In this document: one piece after another, positions 1 through 37,885 of the stretch
Layout of the letters: each line of letters starts with the position of its first letter
How positions within the stretch are numbered: position 1 is the stretch's first letter
Assembly: GCF_002105155.1 (NCBI RefSeq)
Contig: NW_019029005.1
Coordinates: 310,001 to 374,000 of the forward strand
Direction: 5' to 3'
DNA from: Lobosporangium transversale
Taxonomy: Eukaryota
Length of the DNA stretch: 64,000 nucleotides
Notes under the pieces: model-generated
Told to the model about the DNA's origin: nothing
The model's database searches: none
What the model saw: the letters and a program-made list of their open reading frames with translations, nothing else
Made by a program: the position numbers and the translations under genes

Positions 1-2453
1 CTGAGTCTGATCGCGAACTCCAAAAAGAATACTTGCGAGAAAATTTTGAAAAAAGAGAGCGTTTGAGAGAAAAAGAGCGCGAAGCTAACGAGAGGCATAG
101 GCTGTGGAAAGATCCTCAAGGAAGGAAAATGTTACAATTTCGCGACCGTTTGGAAAGAGGGAAGAGGGAGCAATGGTTGCTAAGAAAAATAGAGCAAGAG
201 AGGAAAAAAGAAGAGGCGGAGAGAAGGAGAGTGTGGCGACGTGAACAGTGGGTGCAAGCCAAGCAAGAAGCCGCACACTCGAAGGCTATCGAAAGAGCTC
301 GCCGTCAAGAACGCCTACGGTTACAGGCTAGGTTTCAAAGGCTCGATGAACAAGGAAGAAGAGAACAGCGACGACGAGCGGCTTTCAACCGAGCAAGACG
401 TAGAGCACAAGAGCGAAACAAGATACGTGGACGCCATGAACTCGATGAACAAGCTCTCGATAGGAGGCTCAGGACGAAAGCGCAAGAAGAGATGGACTCC
501 TCAAGAACAAGGAATAATAAAATCCCAGAGGGTCATCATCGGTGGTTTGGCTCCTCTGAGTGCCTAGGTGTAGAGATCCCACAGGTTGACATGGACAATA
601 TACTGCGTCAAAGAGAGAAACTATCAACGATGAGTCAGCTAACACTTTACTCCGATGGGTCCCTTGAAGAGGCAGGAAGAAGGGCGGCGCGGATGGCTTT
701 CGGGTGGTGGCTCAGATAGGCCCAGAAAGCTTCTCAAATGTAGTTTCAGGTAGAGTCGATGGGTATGCTTCATCCACCAAGGCAGAGCTAGTAGGACTGT
801 ACGCAGCCATTCTAGTCAGTCCCCGTAACGTTCCAACGACTGTCTACATAGACAACATGGCGGTAGTGGTTCAGTTCAAGGACCTTGCTCAAAAGCGAGA
901 AGCAAGCACTGAACGGCAGCGATTGCGATCCAAGTACGCAGTGTGGTGGGCAGCCATTTCGAGAGCGCTCTTTAAGCAGGGCGGGAAGGTAACTGTGAAA
1001 TGGGTCAAGGGCCATGCTGGGAATAGAGGCAATATAAGGGCAGACCAAGCCGCCAAAGATGCTCATTTTAGCGAAATGTGGACAATCAAAGACTGGAACA
1101 CAACGATCTGCGCTGTCACGCTATTTTCGAGAACGAGGTGGTGGAGGATGATCTTAGACACCTGCTAAAACTCCAATCAGCAGTGAGAACACATTACTTG
1201 TGGGCGTCTCAGAACAGAGTCAGGAATTATATTGCAGACTGGCGAGAAGTAGAATGGAAAGCAAGCCTGCATATTCTTCACGATGGCAACACGCCTAGAG
1301 GCCTCTTCACCAGCCCAGCAGATTGTCACAAGAGAGCGCACAGAATAAAAAGGTCCATGGTATGCTTCCTACACTCACTTATATGAGGCAGTGGCGACCG
1401 GACCTGTATGAGACTGACATCTGCAGGATGTGTGAACAGGAGCAGGAGGACATAGAACACCTCTGGCGATGTCCCATGACACTGGACGAGCAATTGAAAG
1501 GTTGGAAGCAGGCCATAGAACTCATCACGAAGGATGGCAAAAGAGCATTAGTGAAGGAGAAGAAGCTCTGGGAAGACAAACAAGGGAAAACACAGGAGCC
1601 AAACCTGAATAAAGGAGGCCCTCGTTTACACCTGTAGCCGACAACGTGATTTGGGGCTCTTTGGAAGCGATGTTCAAGGGCGTCAGAGAGATTCGACATG
1701 CGAGCACTCTGTTTGGTGAGGAAGATGTGGATATGGGACGGAGGAACGAGGGTGAGATGCCCACTGGACTGTCCAAGACTTGTACCACGGTTTGGTGCCG
1801 AAGGAACTGATACAAAAATGGAAGACGATCTTCAGAACCACAGCATCGATCTCAAGGTACATTGTTTGCCGCTTTGTCAAGTCAATCGAGGAACTCGGCA
1901 GGACTGAAATCTGGAACAGACGCTGCAAAGTCACCGTCAACTGGGAAAGAGACAATGGTATCACCTCTGTGAGCAAACGCGCCAGGGGACGCAACTGTGT
2001 TGGGAGGCACAGACGTAGCAGAGGTGAATTCTTTGGCTCTCACCAGGGACAACGACGAACAGCAGATGTGAAGGCGATCAGGACTGAGGCAGACCGGCGA
2101 GTGGCGGCAAGCTACCGGCAGCAGGTGGAATTGGCGATTATGGAGCGCCTGGAAAGCTGTAAATTTTTGATGATTGAGGACAGCGGCTAAAGGATGACCT
2201 TCGCGCACAACAGGCCAAGTAGGGAGTAGAGCCGTGCCACAGGTCCTCTGGGACCAAGGAAGTCTACTCAATGCTGACGTGGTTTATGAACAGGATGTAG
2301 TACTGTGGCAGTATGACGATGCGGCTTCGGTCGATTATTGGATACCGCTTTATTTGCGACCCCAGTAATGGGGCAACCCATTTATAGAGCTAACATCTAA
2401 ATAAATCCTACATGACCTCGTGGGTCCTTGTTATCAAAAAAAAAAAAAAAAAA
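1..2453 (+). mobile_element. 3' part of a non-LTR (LINE-like) retrotransposon: charged region, RNase H, C-terminal Cys/His zinc knuckle, 3' UTR and poly(A)
   Basis: RNase H motifs LYSDGS, STKAELVGL, VYIDN, KWVKGHAGNRGNIRADQAAK; CRMCEQEQEDIEHLWRC zinc motif; EIWNRRC; stop at 2190; A-tract 2436-2453; several frameshifts. Confidence 0.9.
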
Positions 2454-2681
2454 GCCTTCCACACTCAGTGGATGATCGAGTCCGGGACAGCTACCTTGGG
2501 AAAACTAAACTGGACGTGGTAGAGCGGCTAGGTGGAATGGAGCTTTTGATGACTATGGATAGCGGATAATTTGTCGTGTTGCGCAACAGGCCACACCGGA
2601 AAGGTGGACTTTGAGTACCAACCACGGCGGTCAGGGTTCCATGACCCGAGGTCCTTATCAAAAAAAAAAAAAAAAAAAAAA
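2454..2681 (+). mobile_element. Short 3'-end fragment of a related LINE with poly(A)
   Basis: Ends in catgacccgaggtccttatc followed by A22, like the tail of the first copy; shares gcaacaggcca-like sequence. Confidence 0.65.
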
Positions 2682-2787
2682 GTGAGACCTTCCGCGCTCA
2701 GCGCCAGCAAATCATATAGGAGCAGTTATTGAACATTTTTGTACAACAACGGAGACGCCAGCCGGCCGCTATCAGCCGAGGGCTCGG

Positions 2788-3112
2788 CAGGACTGAAATC
2801 TGAAACAGGCGCTGCAAAGTCACTGTCAACTGCAGGAGACAATGGCACCACCTCTGTAAGCAAACGCGCCAGGGGACGCAACTGTGTTGGGAGGCACAGA
2901 CGTAGTAGAGGTGAATCCTTTGGCTCTCACCAAGAACATCGACGAGCAGCAGACGTGAACGGGATCAGGGCTGAGGCAGATCGACGGGTGACGGCAAGCT
3001 ACCGACAGTAGGTGGAGTTGGCGGTAAATTTTTGATGATTGAGGCCTACGGCTAAGGATGACCCTCGCAAATAAATCCTACATGACCTCGTGGTCCTCGT
3101 TATAAAAAAAAA
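2788..3112 (+). mobile_element. 5'-truncated, internally deleted copy of the same LINE 3' end
   Basis: Near-identical to ~1897-2205 (SVSKRARGRNCVGRHRRSRGE), then joins aaataaatcctacatgacctcgtggtcc and a short A-tract matching ~2400-2440. Confidence 0.85.
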
Positions 3113-3199
3113 GTACTAATTCTATGACCATTGACCTTGTCTGCATGTCGATCTCTGAGGTCGCGAGCGAGGGGACAAAGATACGCGAGTGACTTGTTG

Positions 3200-26159: not shown

Positions 26160-27715
26160 TTATTGTAGTGGAATGCTTTGTGGAAATCGGAAGACGTTTG
26201 TAGGGTCTGTTGCGGCTTTAATCTGTTTTAGACGAGGAAGGGCCGAGCCATAGTAGGCTTCCTGCCAGTTTGGAATGGTTTTATCAATATAATTTTGGTA
26301 GCCACGAACAGGGCCATAGTTGGTAGTGTAGTCAGCCAAGAACTCACTGTACATGTCGTTCATCCACTTGAGGCAATCTTGGCAGTCGGGTTTGCCTGGT
26401 TTCGCATCCGGGTTCCCATCCCATTCGACTACGAATTCGAGACAGTATGCGAGTCACGGTGGACGAATGATGTTGCATCCACAGGAGTATCTGGGATAGC
26501 TCCTCCCAAATATCAACGATGATATAGTTGGCAGTTGAACCGATGGGTTTTCTTGCAGCCCATTTCCCAAGAAGGCCAATGGTCGAGTCTGTCAAAGGTT
26601 TGGAATAGACTAGAGATTTGCCATTCGTATAGTGCGAATCACCAGCCTTATAAGGACCTTTCAAACCCAGAGCATTGATATCTTTAGGGTCGCCGGCAAC
26701 GTATGCAAAACGTAAATTAGCGTCAATTTGGCGTCCCTCTTGTACTTCTGCGGATAATGGTTTTGGTGCTGTGCTAAAGAAAGAAGAGAGAGCAGCGTCC
26801 ATTTGTGCTCGCGCGCCTTGGAAGATGCCATATAACTCTAGTCCATCAGGCGAGATATTCATCTCTACACCAACATCTCGTGAAGCCGTGGCTTGAAAAT
26901 TGACATAGGCGCGCAAAACGCTAGCATGGCTCGCCATGCCCCAACTGAAAGAGAAGTAGGTGACCACAGGAGGAGGTTTGATAGGCTGGATAGTGAACGA
27001 AGTAACAACACCATAGGAGCCTCCTCCTGCCCCTCGTAGTGCGTAAAATAAATCCGGATTTTGTGTTGCTGAAGCGAGTAGCAGATTTCCGTTGGCATCG
27101 ACCATCTCCATCTCAACAATGCGATCAATTAACAGGCCATATTTGCGAGATAGCAGTCCAAATCCACCTCCGAGTGCATGACCACCAATTCCTACACTAG
27201 GACATGTGCCAGCATTGATCGTCCAGCCGCCTTTATTGAAGAGCTCCAGATAGAGTGGGCCCAAGCGAATTCTGAACCAACTTTGAATGTGGTGCCGGTC
27301 GCAAGTAACAGAAGACAGCCCAGAAAGATCGACCACCAAAGATCCATCCTGCGCCAATGCAATAGCCTTCAAATGAATGACCTCCAGATCGAGGCGCTAC
27401 AGCAATATTAGCAGCTTTTGCGCACTTGACTGCTGTTTGAAACATCGGATGCAGAAATGCCATAACGATGATCTGGGGGTTGAAAGTGTAGCGAAGATCG
27501 AACGCATATCTGTTGTTCTCAAAGGCAGTGGTCTTGCGCTCCAGAACTTTGGAGCCTAAAGGTTTGAGACAAGTGGCTAATGATGTACTCTGTGCAGTGG
27601 GTGTAATATCCTGTCTATCAACCACATCATTACTGTTTGTGAGGTAGTATCCAAAAGAGCTTTGGCAGAGATATAGGATCAAAGCGGTTTTGACGTTGGT
27701 TCTGTGAAATCGCAT
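26160..27715 (-). CDS. Secreted FAD-linked oxidase, berberine-bridge-enzyme/oligosaccharide oxidase-like
   Basis: Signal-like N-terminus, RSGGHSFEG, GTCPSVGIGGHALGGGFG, DLFYALRGAGGGSYGVVT, YQNY...YYG..LPRLKQIKAATDPTNVF. Confidence 0.9.
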
Positions 27716-28156
27716 TATATGTTTGAGAGAAAGAAAAAAAAAGGATGAAGTAGTAAAGATGTGGCTAAGAGATCAATGCATATAATGAAAAGATGAGAAA
27801 AGAAATGGATAAGGAAGAAGAGAAGAGGAAGAAAAAAAAAAAAAAAAAAAAAAAAGAAGAGGAAGAGGAAGAGGAGGAAGGAAGAGGTGAGGCGGGAGGA
27901 AGAGAGGAAAGAAAAAGGGAAGAAAAGGAGAGAGGAATTGCTGTTTAAAAAAAAATCTCAGGTACTAACAAATCTTGGAAATACCAGGGGTAGGGGCGTT
28001 GATGCTGTCTCGGGGATAAATTAGGTTGTGCAACATGAGCAAGGTGCTTATTGGCTGCTTTTTCAATCTTACAAGACATTTGTATAAATATGTAATGTAT
28101 ATACTAAGCATTGACCCACACAGTCATCTTCCCACACAGGATTATTGACAAATACT

Positions 28157-29851
28157 TTATTGGCAATGCTCATGAGGGTGATTAATATCTCCGTTCTCTA
28201 GGTTAGAAGCACCAAAATCACATTCCATCAGGGGCACAACTTTGGTTTTATAGTAAATTTTGTAGCCAAGGTACATGCACAAGAAGAAGGGGAGACCGAT
28301 ATAGCACGCTACAGATTAGAGACTTGTGGATTAGGCTTACTTAACTCGGAATATCCCTGGCCTAATACTACAACCATACACAGCAGCAACGCATATAGTG
28401 GTCCAAATGGAAACATGGCAGCCCTGTATGGTAAGTGCGAAATGTCACCACCTTGTGCGATATATGCACGTCGAAAACGGAAGTGTGAGAGTGCAATCCC
28501 CAACCACGCAATGAATCCTGCAACAGAAGAGATGTTGAGGAGCCAATAGTAAACTTCTCCCGAGCCCAGGAGCGATGCACCAAAGCATAAAGCTGAGACA
28601 ACAGTCGTGCAGACGAGGGCATGCATAGGAATACCACGGGAATTGACTCGGCTAAAAAAAGCCGGGGGCCTTTCCATCACGAGCTAGCATCAGTAGCGTA
28701 CGCGTAGATGCGACATACCCGAGTTGCCTGCTGACATGACTGTAATCAAAATGACAGCATTCATAATATGGGATGCAGGCTTAAGGCTTTTTGAAGTACA
28801 AGTGTGATGGAAGACAGCAACAGCAGTCTTGCGCGACATCACACTGTTGAGAAGATTAGGGTCGTCGTAGGGAATAATTAGCCCAATAATGTATAGATAT
28901 GAATAACGAAACGCGTGATGCGCCAAAAACCTGCTTAATGGCCTTAGGGACATTCTTGCGTGGGTTTTCGCTTTCTCCAGCTGCAACACCAACCAACTCT
29001 GTCCCCTGGAAAGAGAAACCAGCGATCAAAAACACAGAGAGGATACCTCCAAACCCATTGACCACTGGTGCACCTGGTAGTGTCCAGTTGCGGAATCCGA
29101 TTCTATCCCCTCCAACCACTCCAGCATCTACCAGGATCCCGACAATAATAAAGATGATGACAGTGAGGACCTTGATAATGCTGAACCAGTATTCGCTCGC
29201 CATATGCACGGACTGAGATAATATTAACAAAAACCATGAACGCCAAAAAGATTATGCTCCAAACCCAGGCTGGCAGCGCGTCAGATGAGACCCAGAACTG
29301 AAGAATTAATGCTGCAGCTGCGATCTCGGCAGCCACTGTCACTGCCCAACCAAAAAAGTAGTTTGATGCCCAAGGCTAAAAAAATACACATTGGTAAACA
29401 AATATAAATATGTGATATTAGTTTCACTCTTAAAGTTGGTATGTTCAAGAACGACGTTAAAAAGGATTATGTCCTCCTTGACTAACCAAATCCAAGTGCT
29501 GGGTCCACAAAACAGGTAGCATAAGTGGTGAAGGAGCCGGCGGTAGGAATCAGCGTTGCCATCTCACCGAGAGAAGTCATTAGAAAGAATACCATTGATC
29601 CGATCATGATGTAGGCAATCAAGGCTCCCAGAGGTCCAGCCTGTGCGATGGATGACCCTGAAGCCAAGAATAACCCTTTCCAACTGAGCCAGCGATCGAA
29701 ATCATGGAGAATGTCGTGCTTTGAGCCCACGCTTGAGCTCGTTATCTTTTGGAGGAATTGGCTGCTGATCGGATCGGAAGCTTGGCAATTTGGCGATGGT
29801 ATCAACCTTTTCATTAGATCGAGAAGACCAAGAAGAAGCCCTTGAAGGCAT
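28157..29851 (-). CDS. Amino acid permease (APC/YAT family, LysP/Can1-like)
   Basis: LKARH, GLFLASGSSIAQAGPLGAL, SLGEMATLIP, FSFQGTELVGVAAGESENPRK, YIGLPFF; one intron; frameshifts. Confidence 0.92.
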
Positions 29852-30661
29852 TCCAACCGTCTCAATACTGTTGTCTCTTGTTATGTTGCTTGGCTTTTTT
29901 TTTTTTTTTTTTTTTTTTTTAATAAATATATACAAAAAGGGAAGAGTACGAAGTAAATTTTATATTGAAGAATTCAATTTCTGATAATCTGTATAGGGTT
30001 TTTTTTCTAGTGTTTTTATGGGTATATCAAGGAATAATGAATAATTGATGAGGATGAACGGAGAAAAGAAGGGAAGAAAGGAGTAAAAAGCAAACCCTGT
30101 CCGCTTACTGAATTGGTATTTTGAAATTATGTGGTCACAAACCTTGTTTCTTTTATTGAATCACAAAGAAAAGTAATATAAAAAATTGACAAAATATATA
30201 GAATGTGATCTCCAGCGTGATTTAGCCTGAATACCGTTTTTGTGTAGATGTGTAAATTTGGAAAGGCCATCGCATATGACTTGCACTAATGGAGAGGGAT
30301 AAGCAAACATTTTTCTTAACTTGTTTTATCACTTCTCCCTTCACCCACCCCTTCATTCCCCACCACTCAGCATTAAATAACATGGAAGCGCTATTCACAT
30401 CTAATGCAACCAATGCACAGAATAGTTAGGAAGTCCTCTTCAAGGTAGCCTATCGCTCTCTATCGCTGGCGGACTAAGGCTGGTTTGGTGAGCACATTCG
30501 TTATTCAGCATTATATTATATACAAACAATAGTCGTCGCTTGCTGTTGATCCTTTAAAGAAAGAAAACCAAATAATAACTCTTGAACTCTTGAAATTATA
30601 ATTAGAATCACCACAGAATGTTGGTCAGTATTTAGGACAACAGTTAGATTCACACATACAC

Positions 30662-33600
30662 ATGCCCCAACTCCAAAATCAAATTCAATTTCAGGTACAA
30701 TTCCAAGATCAATTCCAATTTCAGGAACAAGGACTTCAAAGCCAAAAGCGGCATATAACGCTACAAGAAAACCCGGCAACTCCTAAACGACGCAAAGGTC
30801 AACCTATAGCAGCTGCGAGCAGAGCTGATGTTGTTGCATCCATGGCGAACAAGACAGCATATGCCACCCATAACAAAATAGCTTGTACGTTGGTCCTACA
30901 GGAGGCAGCTAAGGATCGTGAAAAATCCCTAGCACGTCGAACAGTGTATCATTATCAACAATACCAACGGCATTGGGTGGTGCGTGAGCTTATTTGAATA
31001 GTAGTTGAGCAATGCAAAAAATAATGTTTATTGGTAGCAATTAATTGATCCAATATATATAGGATTGGTGCGAGCGTAAGCATTTCATGGATGGAGACAT
31101 GGTCACATACGAGAAATTCTTACTCTATGTGCGTGAACTTGTGGCAGAAGAATCAGTACAGGCGGAGGACGACTTCTATAGCATCAAGCCATTGCGTGTC
31201 AACGTCACAATAGATTATGAAGGTGATCTCCCTTCTCCAGAGACAGTTGATGCATATGTCAAGTCGGTCATATCGCTCTATCAGTCTCAGCGAGCATTAG
31301 TTCCCAACCCTAGCAACCAGCCATGGGCAAGTCTACGTACAGCCGAGTTCAGAGGGATCATTTCATCATACAGAAAAAGGTAGGAGTAGACAGCAGCATA
31401 ATGTAGTATTATTTAACTTTGAGGCCTGAAAATTGAAGGAGTGGATGTTGTTTTAAAACATATAATATTGCATATTGCTAATTGCCCTAATTGCTGTTCT
31501 GCAGGTATCAACAAAGCAATAAATTCAAGAACCAATATCGAATGTCGGTCGACAATGCATACACACCAGCTCAACTCAAGCAGTTCTTGAAACTTTGTTG
31601 GACTCGATCTTACAAACCTCTGAATGGTGGAGCTAAGACTCACAAGCTGCTTGGGGCTCGCGACCGAGTTAGCTTTGCCTTGAATCATTTTTTGATTGCT
31701 CGTGGCCAAAATTTACTTGATGCGAAATTGAGTAGCCTGTTCCCACATATCCATGCAACGGCTGAGAATGGGCGCCAGCTTTCTTTTGCCCTTGTTCTTG
31801 AGATTACACATGGCAAGACAAATCAGGACTTCACTATCTATTCGTCTTGTATTCGCAATAAAGATGTTGAGCTGTGTCCTTTAGGTGCCTTAGGATTTTA
31901 TCTATTAGAGCTATGGATGGTTAGTTCCTGATACTTTTTCTGTTTAATGTTTCGGGGCTGTACCGACATTCGATTGCTCACATCTATTATTATTCGTAAC
32001 TTTTGACTGTAGGACAAAAAAAACGTTCCTGACTTTCATGACGACAAATGGATGGAAACTTTCCTCATTTTCGGCGCTTCTGATAGAACCCGTATGTCCT
32101 CAACCTCACTCTACAAGTAAGTACAGGGTATACATGGCTTTGTATGGTAGTGCAATAGTAATTGATGGATTGACGCTTCCTCGCGACTTCTTGCTCTTAG
32201 GGCTATGAAAGGGGTTATGAATAAGGCAGGCCATCATAGTGATAAAGTTACTCATGCGGGCCGCAAAGCTGGAGCACAACACGCGATGCTCAATGGATCA
32301 TCGCATGACCAGATATCTCAGCAAGGCAATTGGCTTCATTCTCGCTTGGCGATCCATTACCTACATCCAGTTCCAAGAGCTGTTCCGTATTCGATGGCAG
32401 GCTTCACGCGAACTGATGAGGAATTCTGGCTTCCTCGCAACACACTTATTCCTGATCCCAAACTTCAGAGAATGATTTTTCCTTTCATTGAGAACCTGTT
32501 TGAAGGAAACAAAGACTGGGAGCAGCGCATTGAGAATATCATGATGGACCGCCCCGAGGACTACAATCGACCCCTTTTGGAACAAACAAGCCATTGCAAG
32601 GAGGAAATACCAAAAATACGCTTTAATATTATTCTTGCTCATTTTCGGAAGATTATTCTTCAGGATATGGCTGTACTTATGGAAATTACCGACAATGCTA
32701 ATTGCTATTACCAGATTTACCGGATGCACCATATCTGCCAGATGCCAGTCTTTCAATCGCCAGAGTTCGGAGAGTTTAGTGCAAAGTTGCGCCAAACAAT
32801 GAGTGAGGCAAGATCTCCCTCGATGGATAGCCTTGCAGCAAACGCTCCCGCAATAGCACAGAAACTTGATGTTTTAGGAGCACAGCTTTCAGCTCTTGAT
32901 GACTTCATACGATCACGAGAACGCGTTGATACATCTAACTGTAACTTGACTTCTTCATTCAGGACGCATATGTCAAGTGTCAATCGTCAGCTAGTGGCAC
33001 TCTCTCAAGGGATGAGGGGGCCTTCAATGGTGCAGGAAGAACTATAGGCCACACTGTATCTGAGATCAAATCAATCCAAAGAGAGCAAATACGAGAGTTC
33101 GATCTCCAGATACAGCAGGGATGTGGAGCAGGACAGAGGAGCCCATTCACCCCGGAGCAAGGGCACACAGACGGGCACCTGGTTAGCCATGAGCCGGCTC
33201 ATGAGCAAGCGAGCGTTACCAACACCTCTTCACCTTTACAAGGCGAGGATTCATTCTTCAATGAAGTAGACGGAGCGAGAGAAAGAGAAGAAGAAGTAGT
33301 TGTAGAACAAAGACAAGCTCACTCTCAATCTCAACCTCAATCTCAGTCTGGTATGCAAGGTAGAGTTGATTTGGACCAGTTGGCAGAACAGATCGCCATG
33401 CTCTACGTTCAGATTGGAACAACCCTGTCCTCGCACGAAATGCTTCCGCAAGCAGCGCTTCTCAAGGATCAATGGAAGGAATGGTTCCATGGTGTCGATG
33501 GACGGCCCTCGATCTGGGCTTTGAATAAGAGCTCTGACCAAAAAAGAGCAAAATGGCGTTCAGGATTCGATGCACAGAAAAGGAAGTTGTATCAATTCAA

Positions 33601-33772
33601 GAAGGAACTAATTGAGGCTGTGCTAGAAGAGATATCAAAATCAACATGCATGACGTTAGTGGAAAAGGAAGCTGATGCCCTGACGTCAGTTTCCAAGGCT
33701 ATCATCAACGCTGGCTCCAACAATTCCTACATTAAGATGCGTCGAGCACAAAGAAAAAAAGCTTTTAAGTAA
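30662..33772 (+). mobile_element. CryptonF-type tyrosine recombinase gene (Ndc10-II-like YR + C-terminal GCR1_C domain), 4 introns
   Basis: Exons ~30662-30979, 31063-31379, 31505-31919, 32013-32116, 32201-33772; catalytic set LIARGQN (R), GKTNQ (K), KVTHAGRK (HxxR), GNW, IHYL (Y); CIRNKDVELCPLGALGFYL; QWKEWFHGVDGRPSIWAL GCR1_C motif; one shift at G5 33016-33020. Confidence 0.88.
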
Positions 33773-33935
33773 TGTGTTTATACATATATTTCTTTAAAAT
33801 AAAAATAAACCACACCGTTGAAGGCGTTTCGTTAGACACTTCTAAAGTGTCACTCCATTTTACTTGAAAGCTTCCAACTGATGATATTGGAATATTATTT
33901 ATTACAAAACTGCTGTATGCTATTTTAAGCGGATA

Positions 33936-35803
33936 TCATTGTGTTGTTGTTATTGGTGTTGTTATCGTTGCTGTTGATGACTGATCAAATTTTGATTTTT
34001 TGGTTGCTGGGGAGTCAGATTCGATGTTGAAACTACCTCTCGTGCTCATTTCATTCTTCATTAATTCGAAAAGAGTAAGGACATAGCCAAATATAAGCTT
34101 GCATCTGTCTCTCACGTCTTCCATTTCTCCTATCACTTCTAAAGATTTAGTCAGTTCCAACCTTCGGTATTTTAGCGTGCCATTTTCCAATGTAGATTCA
34201 ACAAATGCCCATTGAAATGAGTTGGTTACGATTCCATAAGCCCTAAGGGCTCTAGGGCAATCTCCATCCTCTCAGTTCGTTTTCGTTTCCTATTGTGCAA
34301 GGCTACATCGAGCTGTACCATATTTTGTGCAAGGCCTTGCACATGATCGTCCTTCTTCACTTCCGTAATGCCAAGAAATTGTCCCGAATTGATACAGTCA
34401 ACAACAGCAAAGTCCAAAGTCCCATAGCCGCGCGTGCCTTTCAAAGACTGTTGTTGCGAAAGGATCATGTCGGGCGCATAGAGCGATACTGCTCCAACCA
34501 TGAATGCATCGACAATTGTTGATCTTGTAGCCTCATTTGATTGTGCATTAAATGCATAGGCTCTACCTTTGCGAATGCAATCGTCCACAATATGTCCCAA
34601 TATTGTCTCTTCAGCTTCTGTCAAGTCCTCCTTGGGCTTGAGATCAAATTTTGGTAGATCAATGAACGATTGTAATTTATACGTGTCTTGAACTTTTTTC
34701 CAGTCCCATGACGAAAAACTAATGGCTGGGGTAGCCAAAGATATAATGAGCCTTTTCCACTTTTTTTGCTGAAGTTTTTCCAAGATAGAACGAAATTGAA
34801 TGTCGTCTCTCAACAACGGAAATGTCTTCGTTTCCTCATCGTACACAAATATTTGGACTTCCTCGAACTCCTCAAACTCCAAGCAATAATCTCGAAGGCT
34901 TTCTCGCAGGCTTCCTATAGTAGCTGATTTAATATTGGTGGAATATGTGCAAATAACCTTATTCCGATCTCTTTTGTTCACGACGCTCAGTGCTAGAATA
35001 ACAACAAAGTCAGCTCTCTTTCACTATGGTTCCTTTCGACATCTTTCCATTCCACATTCTCACTTATTGTTGATTATCACTTACTAGTATATGTGTCCGC
35101 CTGTAGTTGTTGCTCCAATTCGGCGTTTTTCTTTTGTACCATTTCTAAATCTGCTTCCATATGCAGTTTTTGTTGCCTCAGGTCGGTCATTTCCTTGTGT
35201 AAATTTATGATTATCGTTTCTAAATTTGCGATTGTCGTTTCTAAAGTTACGATCATCGTTCCTAAATTTGCGTTCGTATGCAGTCGTTGCTTCAAGTCGG
35301 CGATTTCCTTTTGTAGATCTGCGTTCGTCGTCTGTAGACTTGCGATTATAGGTTCATTCCCTTCACTTTTAACTTAGGAGAAAGGAATACAAATAGAAAG
35401 TGCGTATGACTTGTTTAATCATAGTTAACTGTGGACAAAAAAAAAAGGCATACCAGTAGAGTGGAATAGTACCTGGTCGTTCAATAATGACATGGATGGT
35501 TTTTTTTGGTGGTACAGCGCCAAAAACCTCAGAGACCTCGCTAGTCGGATCTTCGAGCTTCTCTGGGTTTTTCTGCGCCTTCTGCTCGTCTGTAAGATTG
35601 CTTAATGTAATTGGTTTCTTGGAGATAGAAGAAATGGCGACATGCCAGAGAGTGAGCTTGCTTGCATTAATATCATGAAACTCTAGCTGCTTTTTCTTGA
35701 TGGCATCCTTGAGATGGTCTATCGTTTTTGAAGAGGAGATATCCACTGAGAATATGGAGGAATCTCCATCGATAACGCAAAAGAGGGTTACTTCGGTGGC
35801 CAT
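33936..35803 (-). CDS. Crinkler (CRN) family protein: ubiquitin-like CRN N-domain, coiled coil, PD-(D/E)xK nuclease C-domain
   Basis: TLFCVIDGD..TIDHLKDAIK..LTLWHV..TIHVIIERP; nuclease NEATRS, GTLDFAVVD, GITEVKK, QGLAQNMVQL, YGIVTNSFQWAF; 2 introns; one shift near 34270. Confidence 0.88.
35195..35275. repeat. 21-bp degenerate tandem repeat encoding heptads in the CRN linker
   Basis: atcgtttctaaatttgcgatt / gtcgtttctaaagttacgatc / atcgttcctaaatttgcgttc; encodes ANLGTMI VTLETTI ANLETII. Confidence 0.75.
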
Positions 35804-36611
35804 GGTAGTGTTATGATTGTTTGTTTCAATAGTTTCAATGGAGCGAGTATTTTAAAGGATGGCGATAGCGCAAAGCCACAATGCGCCTTGCAAATAGGAA
35901 GAGAATGTTATCCATTTTTGATTCTTATTTTAAAATATAATAAATGAATAGCTATATTTGTGATTCATATTGACGCAAGGAACTCACCATAAGAGAATGA
36001 TACGGATAGATAGATGGAAATCAAAAAGGGAGGACTGAAATATCATGTGACGACATATATAGGATCACAGGAAAAATTTTGTGACCCTGTGCACGCTACT
36101 GAGACTCTTTTGTCATGAGCAGATCCAATAAAGAAATGATTGGCATCGTCCATGTTTCAGTCGCCGACAGGTTTTAAGTCAGTCGTCCTAATCATATTCG
36201 TTACGAGATGTGATTAAGGAAGCAAAGTATACGAATATCTGAATGAATATAGCTCTACCCATCACTCTGGTTGGATTCTTTAAGTACTTTGCAATTTGGG
36301 AGATCAAAGAGCAAAGTGCACAGTCCTCTTGAGTTCTGTGGGTAGCACAACAATCAAACAAGGCAAGTTTTCCACGATTGTTTACATACTTTTCTCCAAC
36401 ACCCTGAATGTCTGGATGCCGTTGGGACTGACGTTATCAAGGATGTGAGACTGCTGATGGATTAGAGATTTTATCTCTGTTCTGAAGTGTATAAATATAA
36501 TATATAATATATATATATATATATACTAAATATCTACTGAGTCTGACTTTTATTGATCGTGGGGTCTGTTGACGAAAGAGGATTGGAACAAATAAGGTTT
36601 TTCTCTTTAGC

Positions 36612-37885
36612 TTATTTCACCTCACCTTCATCTTCTACTTCTTCTTCCTCAACGATACCTGCACCAGTGCCCCACCCGAAAACATCTTTTGATGCAGCCA
36701 CATCTATTCTTCTATATGGAGCAATTGGTAGAGCTACCTGTTTCATAGTGCGTAATACATGACGCAAGTGCTGTGCACTAAGGAGGTGGCCTAGCCATGC
36801 CTTCCACCTATTCCAACGTGACCCGCAAACAGAACAATACCAATGAGCTTGAGTTGCATTGATGGAAGTTTCGTTGAGAAGAGTTGATGGCATTGCACGT
36901 TGTCCTGCATTTTTCGTACAGCTACTTTGTGTCTGGGAAGCGGCTGCTATACTTATATCTGTTTGGTTTAACAGACGGGGGGCCGAGATGTGTGTTATAG
37001 ATGTTTGTTTCGAAGGACGATCATTCTTATTCTTGTCTTGCGTTTTTTCATTGGATATCCAGTTCATCTTTAGTCCTGCATCACCTGAGTCAGCTAACCT
37101 CTGTTTCCGAGACCTTGCCTTCTTTATGGCTCTTTCAAGTTGTCTTCTTCGTTGTTTTGCTCCTTGCCGGCGTGATACTTCCACCTCTTCAATGGGGTTG
37201 TTTTTTTCGGGCTTTAATAGTGCAGAGGTCGGTTTTGAGAACTTGTTGGAAGGATCAACTGTGGATACTGAGGTTTGATCTTTATGTAACTGCTTTACTC
37301 TTGCAAGGTGCTTTTTAGACGATAAATGAGTTGTGAGCATGGCGATTGAGGTAAAACGTGCATTTGGGCAAGTGGGACATTTTGGTGGGTTTTCCTATTC
37401 AAAGGTAAACAGCGATAATTTAAAAAGAAAAGAACGTCTGTTGTCATATAAATAACAAGGAGTTTTAAACCAAAGCAAACACAGCCAAGATAAGCAACCA
37501 GCGTCGGATTAAAAAATATATACCATTAGTCTTTTTTGCTGCTGCTTGCGAGAATTGTATGAAATCCTTTGCAGCTCCTCATCAGGTAATAATTGCCAAG
37601 CATAGAGGTGTTTTTGTGCAGCATTGTCGGTACCAGAGGATTTGGTATCAACACCAGCCTTATGTATTGGCATTTGTGTTTGTAGTGACTTTATAGTAAT
37701 ATCCACGTGGTCCATCAAATTGAAACTCTTGAAGTTGGTACAGGTCCTCTAAGGATTGCATATTCGTCAAGTTCATGAAGCACAGAGCATTCTCGAATGA
37801 ATAGAAGATGTACTAACTAGCCAAGATAGTTGATTACACCCAAGCCACAACAGGTTTCCTGGACTTGAAAATTGCAGTCGTTCAT
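36612..37885 (-). CDS. C2H2 (matrin/U1-like) zinc-finger protein
   Basis: CPTCPNARFTSIAMLTTHLSSKKH and WYCSVCGSRWNRWKAWLGHLLSAQH. Confidence 0.65.

Follow-up and report, generated by a model that had tools for sequence, protein, structure and literature searches.

Cryptons carry direct repeats of 4-6 bp at their ends and are without long terminal repeats (Kojima and Jurka 2011, PMC3212892). Here, we describe a CryptonF-type element in a 64,000-nt stretch of DNA from the soil fungus Lobosporangium transversale (NW_019029005.1, 310,001-374,000), which we term the window and in which all positions below are counted. The element (30106-36101, plus strand, 5,996 bp) is delimited by a step in sequencing depth and by foreign flanks at both ends, occurs in several near-identical copies and holds two convergent genes, one for a tyrosine recombinase and one for a Crinkler (CRN) protein. 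We consider it very probable that these roughly 6 kb form a single CryptonF DNA transposon, present in multiple copies and enclosing a complete, spliced Crinkler gene. It likely moves by its own tyrosine recombinase and carries the Crinkler gene as cargo acquired recently.

The window element shares with described CryptonF elements a protein that combines tyrosine recombinase and GCR1_C, short terminal direct repeats, the lack of long terminal repeats and the presence of few copies (PMC3212892). Its terminal direct repeat TACTG fits the 4-6 bp known for CryptonF, and neither long terminal nor inverted repeats are found between the ends. CAGTAT is the terminus of CryptonF-1_RO from Rhizopus oryzae and TTACTG that of three oomycete CryptonS families (PMC3212892); the reverse complement of CAGTAT contains TACTG. 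CryptonF-1_RO is 3.5 kb long, whereas the window element spans 6.0 kb and has a second, convergent and intron-bearing gene from a host multigene family. Second genes as such have been described in Cryptons, namely a C48 peptidase in oomycetes and a Mariner transposase in MarCry (PMC3212892). The view of Cryptons as single-gene elements, taken in a preliminary description of this locus, was therefore too strong, since both CryptonF and CryptonS with a C48 peptidase gene are in print (PMC3212892). In Chlamydomonas reinhardtii, CryptonF-1_cRei has the ends CACCG and the target CAYCG, excises cleanly and prefers sites close to genes (PMC9977147). The window element is similar in its 5-bp terminal core (TACTG compared with CACCG/CAYCG) and in its gene-proximal insertion, the copy in the window lying about 255 bp upstream of a permease gene. 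The target match is known for CryptonF-1_cRei, its movement was observed and the accessible text mentions no cargo (PMC9977147), whereas the window element would move as judged from its copies and has a Crinkler as cargo.

A second group of related systems are the Starships, including Enterprise with its Spok genes (PMC8092012, PMC11162782, PMC9972908, 10.64898/2026.09.21.753150). Here too the recombinase comes first, the whole cargo lies behind it and the ends carry short repeats. Starships have a DUF3435 recombinase, reach tens to hundreds of kb and are described from filamentous Dikarya; in contrast, the window element has an NDC10/GCR1_C recombinase, 6 kb, a single cargo gene and a host from the Mortierellaceae. 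Among the features that define Starships only the layout is found in the window element, but not the DUF3435 captain (no match at Pfam E 0.1, where only NDC10_II and GCR1_C matched), the giant size with many cargo genes or the Dikarya host. Already in print are thus CryptonF elements, second genes in Cryptons, carriage of cargo by Starships and looser links of Crinklers to helitrons, hAT and mariner elements. New here is a two-gene CryptonF with a whole-gene Crinkler cargo, young and expressed. We found neither a Crinkler gene inside a Crypton nor a Crypton in Mortierellaceae in the literature searched; Zhang et al. 2016 with its supplements and Repbase may contain cases.

The extent of the element is given by sequencing data. 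Seven of eight runs were compared with the window, X1-X6 and X8 among them, all as assembled contigs, and counts of foreign flanks and joints are minimum numbers among the joints listed. Contig depth is not a strict copy number and hence the flanks weigh more as evidence. Depth jumps up at 30106 and drops after 36101, and in all four deep DNA runs the block is 4.9-8.0 times as deep as the flank. Relative to single-copy flank contigs, the recombinase half and the Crinkler half have depths of 7.1 and 7.1 in X1, 5.8 and 6.3 in X2, 7.7 and 8.0 in X3, and 4.9 and 5.5 in X4 (348 flank bases within the contig were allowed for in X1 and X2). Copies with the recombinase only would deepen the left half. 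The left half is not deeper in any of these four runs, which argues against such a class, and recombinase-only copies stopping near 33800, raised earlier as a contrary case, were not seen as far as contigs can show. A 4,581-nt contig of X1 starts in a foreign flank, traverses the recombinase gene with both stop codons and reaches 34332 (element part 30106-34332). In the small run X6 the block was assembled as pieces over 30097-35935, the right flank being entirely missing.

At the right end, run X3 alone has at least four flanks, namely the window's own, two that leave at 36101 and one that leaves at 36102. The two contigs leaving at 36101 are different ones, because they agree at only 65%. 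All right flanks among those listed start at 36102 or 36103 (loose ends in X1, X3 and X4), directly after the right TACTG (36097-36101, plus strand). At the left end there are at least three flanks besides the window's own. Foreign sequence joins at 30106 in X1, X2, X3 and X4, the first base of the left TACTG (30106-30110, plus strand), which is likely the crossover core; other left joints lie at 30118 (X3, X4) and 30097 (X6). The number of right flanks in X3 together with the depth of the block speaks for interspersed copies, as in CryptonF elements. At 96% likeness, only seven substitution sites are listed across 6.5 kb and hence the copies appear young. The unit is wider than the 30150-35975 of the preliminary description, and its left end is possibly even at 30097. 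This 9-bp left extension (30097-30105, plus strand) would be common to one other copy and comes from a single observation, one low-depth X6 contig with a different flank; if real, element ends are able to move and to absorb flanking DNA. The contigs of X3 and X4 that join at 30118 do so behind a different 5' stretch with AACTG, a possible end variant, and one X4 contig leaves the element at 30185, possibly a short left-end derivative.

A segmental or tandem duplication, or a Crypton that by chance lies beside a separate Crinkler repeat, might produce a similar pair. Depth alone does not distinguish these cases from a transposon unit, and Crinkler paralogues add depth to the right half. However, four unrelated right flanks begin at the same TACTG, give or take one base, a path of deep contigs leads across the intergenic spacer, and no joint of a right end to a left end, as in a tandem array, is among the joints listed. 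We therefore regard an origin of the pair other than as a transposon unit as very improbable. The spacer of 163 bp between the convergent stops (33773-33935; stops at 33772 and 33936) contained no relic element end that could be found, a right end included. The shared outer ends and the even depth over both genes support the earlier proposal of a compact tyrosine-recombinase element that mobilises a Crinkler gene. Coordinates and Pfam matches likewise agree with the arrangement reported before, a tyrosine recombinase-GCR1_C gene and a convergent CRN gene between housekeeping-type genes. To the left lies a minus-strand gene for an amino-acid permease, which starts near 29851, and to the right a C2H2 zinc-finger gene with its stop at 36612.

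Inside the cores lie two inverted 9-mers, TTTGTGACC at 36078-36086 (plus strand) and its partner at 30133-30141 (minus strand), 10 bp inside the right and 22 bp inside the left core. They are candidate recombinase-binding sites and the sole two matches in the window. Two matches somewhere were reached in 10 of 100 shuffles, so the count is not significant and only the position argues for them.

The left gene (30662-33772, plus strand) encodes a tyrosine recombinase of 908 amino acids in the coding exons 30662-30979, 31063-31379, 31505-31919, 32013-32116 and 32201-33772, and its reading frame from ATG 30662 has no internal stop. Run X5 behaves like RNA, with introns skipped in its contigs. One 2,891-nt X5 contig over the recombinase exons skips five GT-AG introns, and X5 contig 16 (joint 30486/30605) reveals a non-coding first exon of the transcript (30356-30487, plus strand). 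Pfam matches NDC10_II in two exons (E 6.8e-8 and 1.7e-10) and GCR1_C, the DNA-binding domain, at 33449-33640 (plus strand; PF12550, E 1.5e-8). The catalytic set, assigned by motif order, is R278, K316, H403, R406, W429 and Y438, with codons at 31701, 31815, 32253, 32262, 32331 and 32358. The H-R-W-Y stretch aligns weakly with Cre 289-328 (E 0.07). Its spacing (+3, +26, +35) is the same as in Cre. Relatives of the recombinase number 558 at E 0.001, the best being 47-49% identical. A Pfam scan of the ten main frames of the block gave no reverse transcriptase or DDE transposase. By its NDC10_II and GCR1_C domains, its catalytic residues and the termini, the left gene classes as a CryptonF tyrosine recombinase.

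The preliminary description took both genes as intact except for a one-base shift in each. Both genes are indeed whole, but the shifts are errors of the window assembly that are not in the organism: those near 30426 and 33013 are absent from the short-read contigs of all covering runs (6/6 each), as is the one near 34270 in the Crinkler gene (7/7).

The recombinase leader has an upstream open reading frame of 35 codons (30382-30606) that starts at 30382 and whose stop codon is created by the first splice junction, and three further, shorter ones. This arrangement could limit translation of the recombinase. ATG 30382 as the start of the recombinase itself was rejected, since splicing puts it out of frame. 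Over 32084-33540, contigs of single-copy depth match short recombinase stretches with jumps, pointing to a Crypton relative in the genome that is older and has diverged. The Lobosporangium proteins P0013 and P0023 are recombinase relatives at 38-44% identity. P0011 from Linnemannia schmuckeri (2,546 amino acids) has two recombinase-like stretches without the H-R-W-Y part and repeated N-terminal-like modules, and may be a domesticated Crypton derivative.

The right gene, on the minus strand, encodes a Crinkler protein of 558 amino acids. Exon 1 (35473-35803) holds the ubiquitin-like header (PF20147, E 1.6e-23), which closes with HVIIERP and is followed at once by an intron. Exon 2 (35085-35372) is a coiled coil of internal repeats. 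Exon 3 (33936-34992) encodes a predicted PB1-like domain (about 34730-34990), followed by a restriction-endonuclease fold with an E...D...ExK...Q motif and an RKRKR basic motif, as judged from a homologue model and conservation. Two joints in X5 skip the two introns, and the first of these joints could also stem from paralogues with the same header; a 585-nt contig of X5 is identical to exon 3. On both sides of the shift near 34270 (213 and 52 amino acids), P0185, a public protein of Lobosporangium transversale, shows 100% identity. A hydrophobic signal stretch is absent from the protein.

The structure of the homologue P0002 was modelled from 113 sequences with a pLDDT (predicted local distance difference test) of 88.6. 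The model has a ubiquitin-like header (residues 1-110), a helix, a second beta-grasp domain and a restriction-endonuclease-like domain. The second beta-grasp domain is nearest to PB1 domains (Z 9.8-11.1; 1wmh with Z 11.1, root-mean-square deviation 2.1 and 83 aligned residues). Among nuclease domains, the C-terminal domain matches BpuSI (Z 13.5, deviation 2.8, 153 aligned), DrdV (Z 11.2) and HsdR (Z 9.4). Foldseek matched chiefly the ubiquitin-like parts of the model. Exon 3 of the window keeps E153, D193, E210, K212 and Q222, and the D, E, K and Q of the motif are conserved in 104/106, 91/108, 103/108 and 103/105 aligned homologues. The RKRKR motif is kept as well and conserved across the homologues, and the ESM Atlas groups exon 3 with Crinkler-associated Mucoromycota clusters (0.91). 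The cargo is predicted to be a non-secreted, nucleus-bound PD-(D/E)XK nuclease, and it may oligomerise via the PB1-like domain. This domain (34730-34990, minus strand), placed between header and nuclease, is conserved in Crinkler homologues and has no Pfam match.

Crinklers with restriction-endonuclease domains have been described before (PMC5289972; RiCRN1, PMC6131194). They share with the window protein the ubiquitin-like header with LxLW and HVxxxxP, the absence of a signal peptide, a C-terminal domain of the restriction-endonuclease type and a basic motif; most CRNs are without a signal peptide (PMC6131194). The PB1-like middle domain of the window Crinkler family goes unmentioned in the accessible text of both papers. 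The links of known Crinklers to mobile DNA are helitron-rich regions and a gypsy insertion (PMC5289972, PMC6131194), whereas the window Crinkler lies inside a delimited element. The AACRNL genes of fish are similar in that a Crinkler is copied with the help of a DNA transposon in a non-pathogen (PMC12957317). However, AACRNL is an ADP-ribosyltransferase with a degenerate header between hAT or mariner ends (PMC12957317), while here a tyrosine-recombinase element is involved.

The cargo of Enterprise offers a parallel of a different kind. Spok acts on DNA (PMC9972908) and the Crinkler cargo is a predicted nuclease. The nuclease might be a selfish toxin of the same element, killing nuclei, spores or progeny that lose it, like Spok in Enterprise. 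Spok1 kills by DNA targeting (PMC9972908) and is carried on a tyrosine-recombinase element (PMC8092012), and the Crinkler gene is open and spliced, with the nuclease motif kept and no hydrophobic signal stretch. However, a recent passenger would appear just as intact, and the Crinkler family is widespread in Mortierellaceae as apparently ordinary genes. A separate antidote gene or RNA is absent from the element (two genes only; Rfam blank), but a one-protein design as in Spok stays compatible. We regard a toxin function as unlikely. The addiction or defence module put forward in the preliminary description is speculation.

What is known of the relatives bears on where the pair came from. Homologues with a named source are mostly from Mortierellaceae, and Crinkler homologues (180 at E 1e-10) are common as apparently ordinary genes across this family. 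In each run three to four diverged contigs leave the window sequence at the Crinkler 3' end, so that other Crinkler paralogues of the genome, diverging at 33942-33976, have different 3' neighbours. In X1, one contig attaches a different flank to the Crinkler 3' end at 34026, which would be either a close paralogue or a truncated copy with a different tail. The header is 95% identical to that of the paralogue P0006, whereas the exon-3 parts are 49% identical (BLASTP); with the intron right behind the header, this contrast fits shuffling at the header boundary. No relatives of either gene were found in the scans run on viral and prokaryote collections. None of 15 tagged recombinase homologues adjoins a listed Crinkler tag in the same assembly, a weak test. 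The pair was not seen in other species and paralogues have other 3' neighbours, which points to a capture in the recent past. The most parsimonious account is that the Crinkler gene was captured recently and then amplified, the nuclease being a passenger. Given the element, we lean towards a passenger dispensable for transposition.

Run X8 bears on the state of the element. At 585 of 588 changed places the change is C>T or G>A. In all eight listed pieces as many letters are changed as there are C or G, to within one, and loose ends are nearly C-free. A second strain with RIP-like mutation (repeat-induced point mutation) was rejected, as the changes match the C/G content of all eight pieces. 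X8 thus appears to be a bisulfite-converted library made from the same genotype. Seven pieces inside the element comprise 78 CpG sites, and if X8 is a bisulfite library, as its pattern suggests, most element molecules appear unmethylated.

The seemingly unmethylated state would also fit a nuclease that helps transposition, for example by cutting a recombination intermediate or countering silencing. Some Holliday-junction resolvases have a PD-(D/E)XK fold, which could suit such a role. On the other hand, the recombinase is the sole gene in the majority of CryptonF elements described (PMC3212892), and a Crinkler neighbour occurred in 0/17 related loci and 0/15 tagged homologues, both being weak tests. 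We therefore think a helper function quite improbable. Taken more broadly, the locus might be a miniature Starship-like selfish unit outside Dikarya, in which an active Crypton co-opted a Crinkler nuclease as toxin or helper favouring its own spread. We consider this rather unlikely; if true, genomic conflict, not interaction with hosts, would drive the expansion of Crinklers in early-diverging fungi that are not pathogens.

For a CryptonF with a captured passenger, a path of movement can be proposed. The recombinase would bind near the ends, possibly at the inverted 9-mers, by comparison with other Cryptons and Starships. Recombination of the two TACTG cores would release a circle, in analogy to CryptonF-1 of Chlamydomonas (PMC9977147) and to Starships (10.64898/2026.09.21.753150), and the circle would insert at a genomic TACTG-like site, so that one core derives from the target. 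A host Crinkler paralogue beside an ancestral copy may have been captured when a more distant core served as right end, and the enlarged element would then have amplified 5-7 fold.

Several observations weigh against the picture of a mobile CryptonF with a nuclease as cargo. The runs look like one genotype, and the source of the window may be among them. They are thus not independent strains. Neither an empty-site joint nor a circle joint is among the joints listed for these contigs; contigs lose rare forms, and this result counts neither for nor against excision. Visible flank sequence is up to 30 letters long and left and right flanks cannot be paired. The stretch 29937-30096 is without any contig, possibly an effect of filtering, and hence the left junction of the window copy itself is unconfirmed by reads, and the left ends are non-uniform, with three join points. 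No Crinkler was found near a related recombinase in 17 metagenome loci (recombinase alignment scan; tblastn or a hidden Markov model), a weak test, since just L001 and L010 have at least 3 kb downstream. With respect to the nuclease, the fold was modelled on a homologue that is 53% identical, and the window's own piece, with seven sequences, reached a pLDDT of 49.5. The window Crinkler sits on a fairly long branch and deviates from its homologues at several well-conserved columns. The top fold matches of the C-terminal domain of P0002 are mitoribosomal proteins (Z 14.7-16.2). Mitoribosomal proteins are not known as nucleases. Their better match means that the fold alone is no proof of activity.

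Early-diverging fungi have many Crinkler genes, which have so far been linked to mobile DNA mostly through neighbourhood. A whole Crinkler gene within the mapped ends of a young, expressed and apparently unsilenced element offers a concrete and likely route for Crinkler multiplication. It also adds a case from the Mortierellaceae in which a whole gene is carried by a Crypton-type recombinase. With 6 kb and a 5-bp core, the element makes a tractable system to study excision, circle formation and the role of cargo in Cryptons.

The window as a whole is fungal DNA with numerous one-base errors, housekeeping genes included. One-base shifts are found, for example, in the gene of a flavin adenine dinucleotide (FAD) oxidoreductase (26344-27772) and in the permease gene, where gaps relative to the short-read contigs suggest uncorrected assembly errors. 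Far from the element, positions 1-3130 hold remains of a region that resembles a non-LTR (non-long-terminal-repeat) retroelement, with an RNase H open reading frame at 668-1165 (Pfam E 8e-11). This region has an internal duplication of 188 bp, 89% identical (1949/2836), and three similar 3' ends near 2434, 2660 and 3105, each followed by an A-run.

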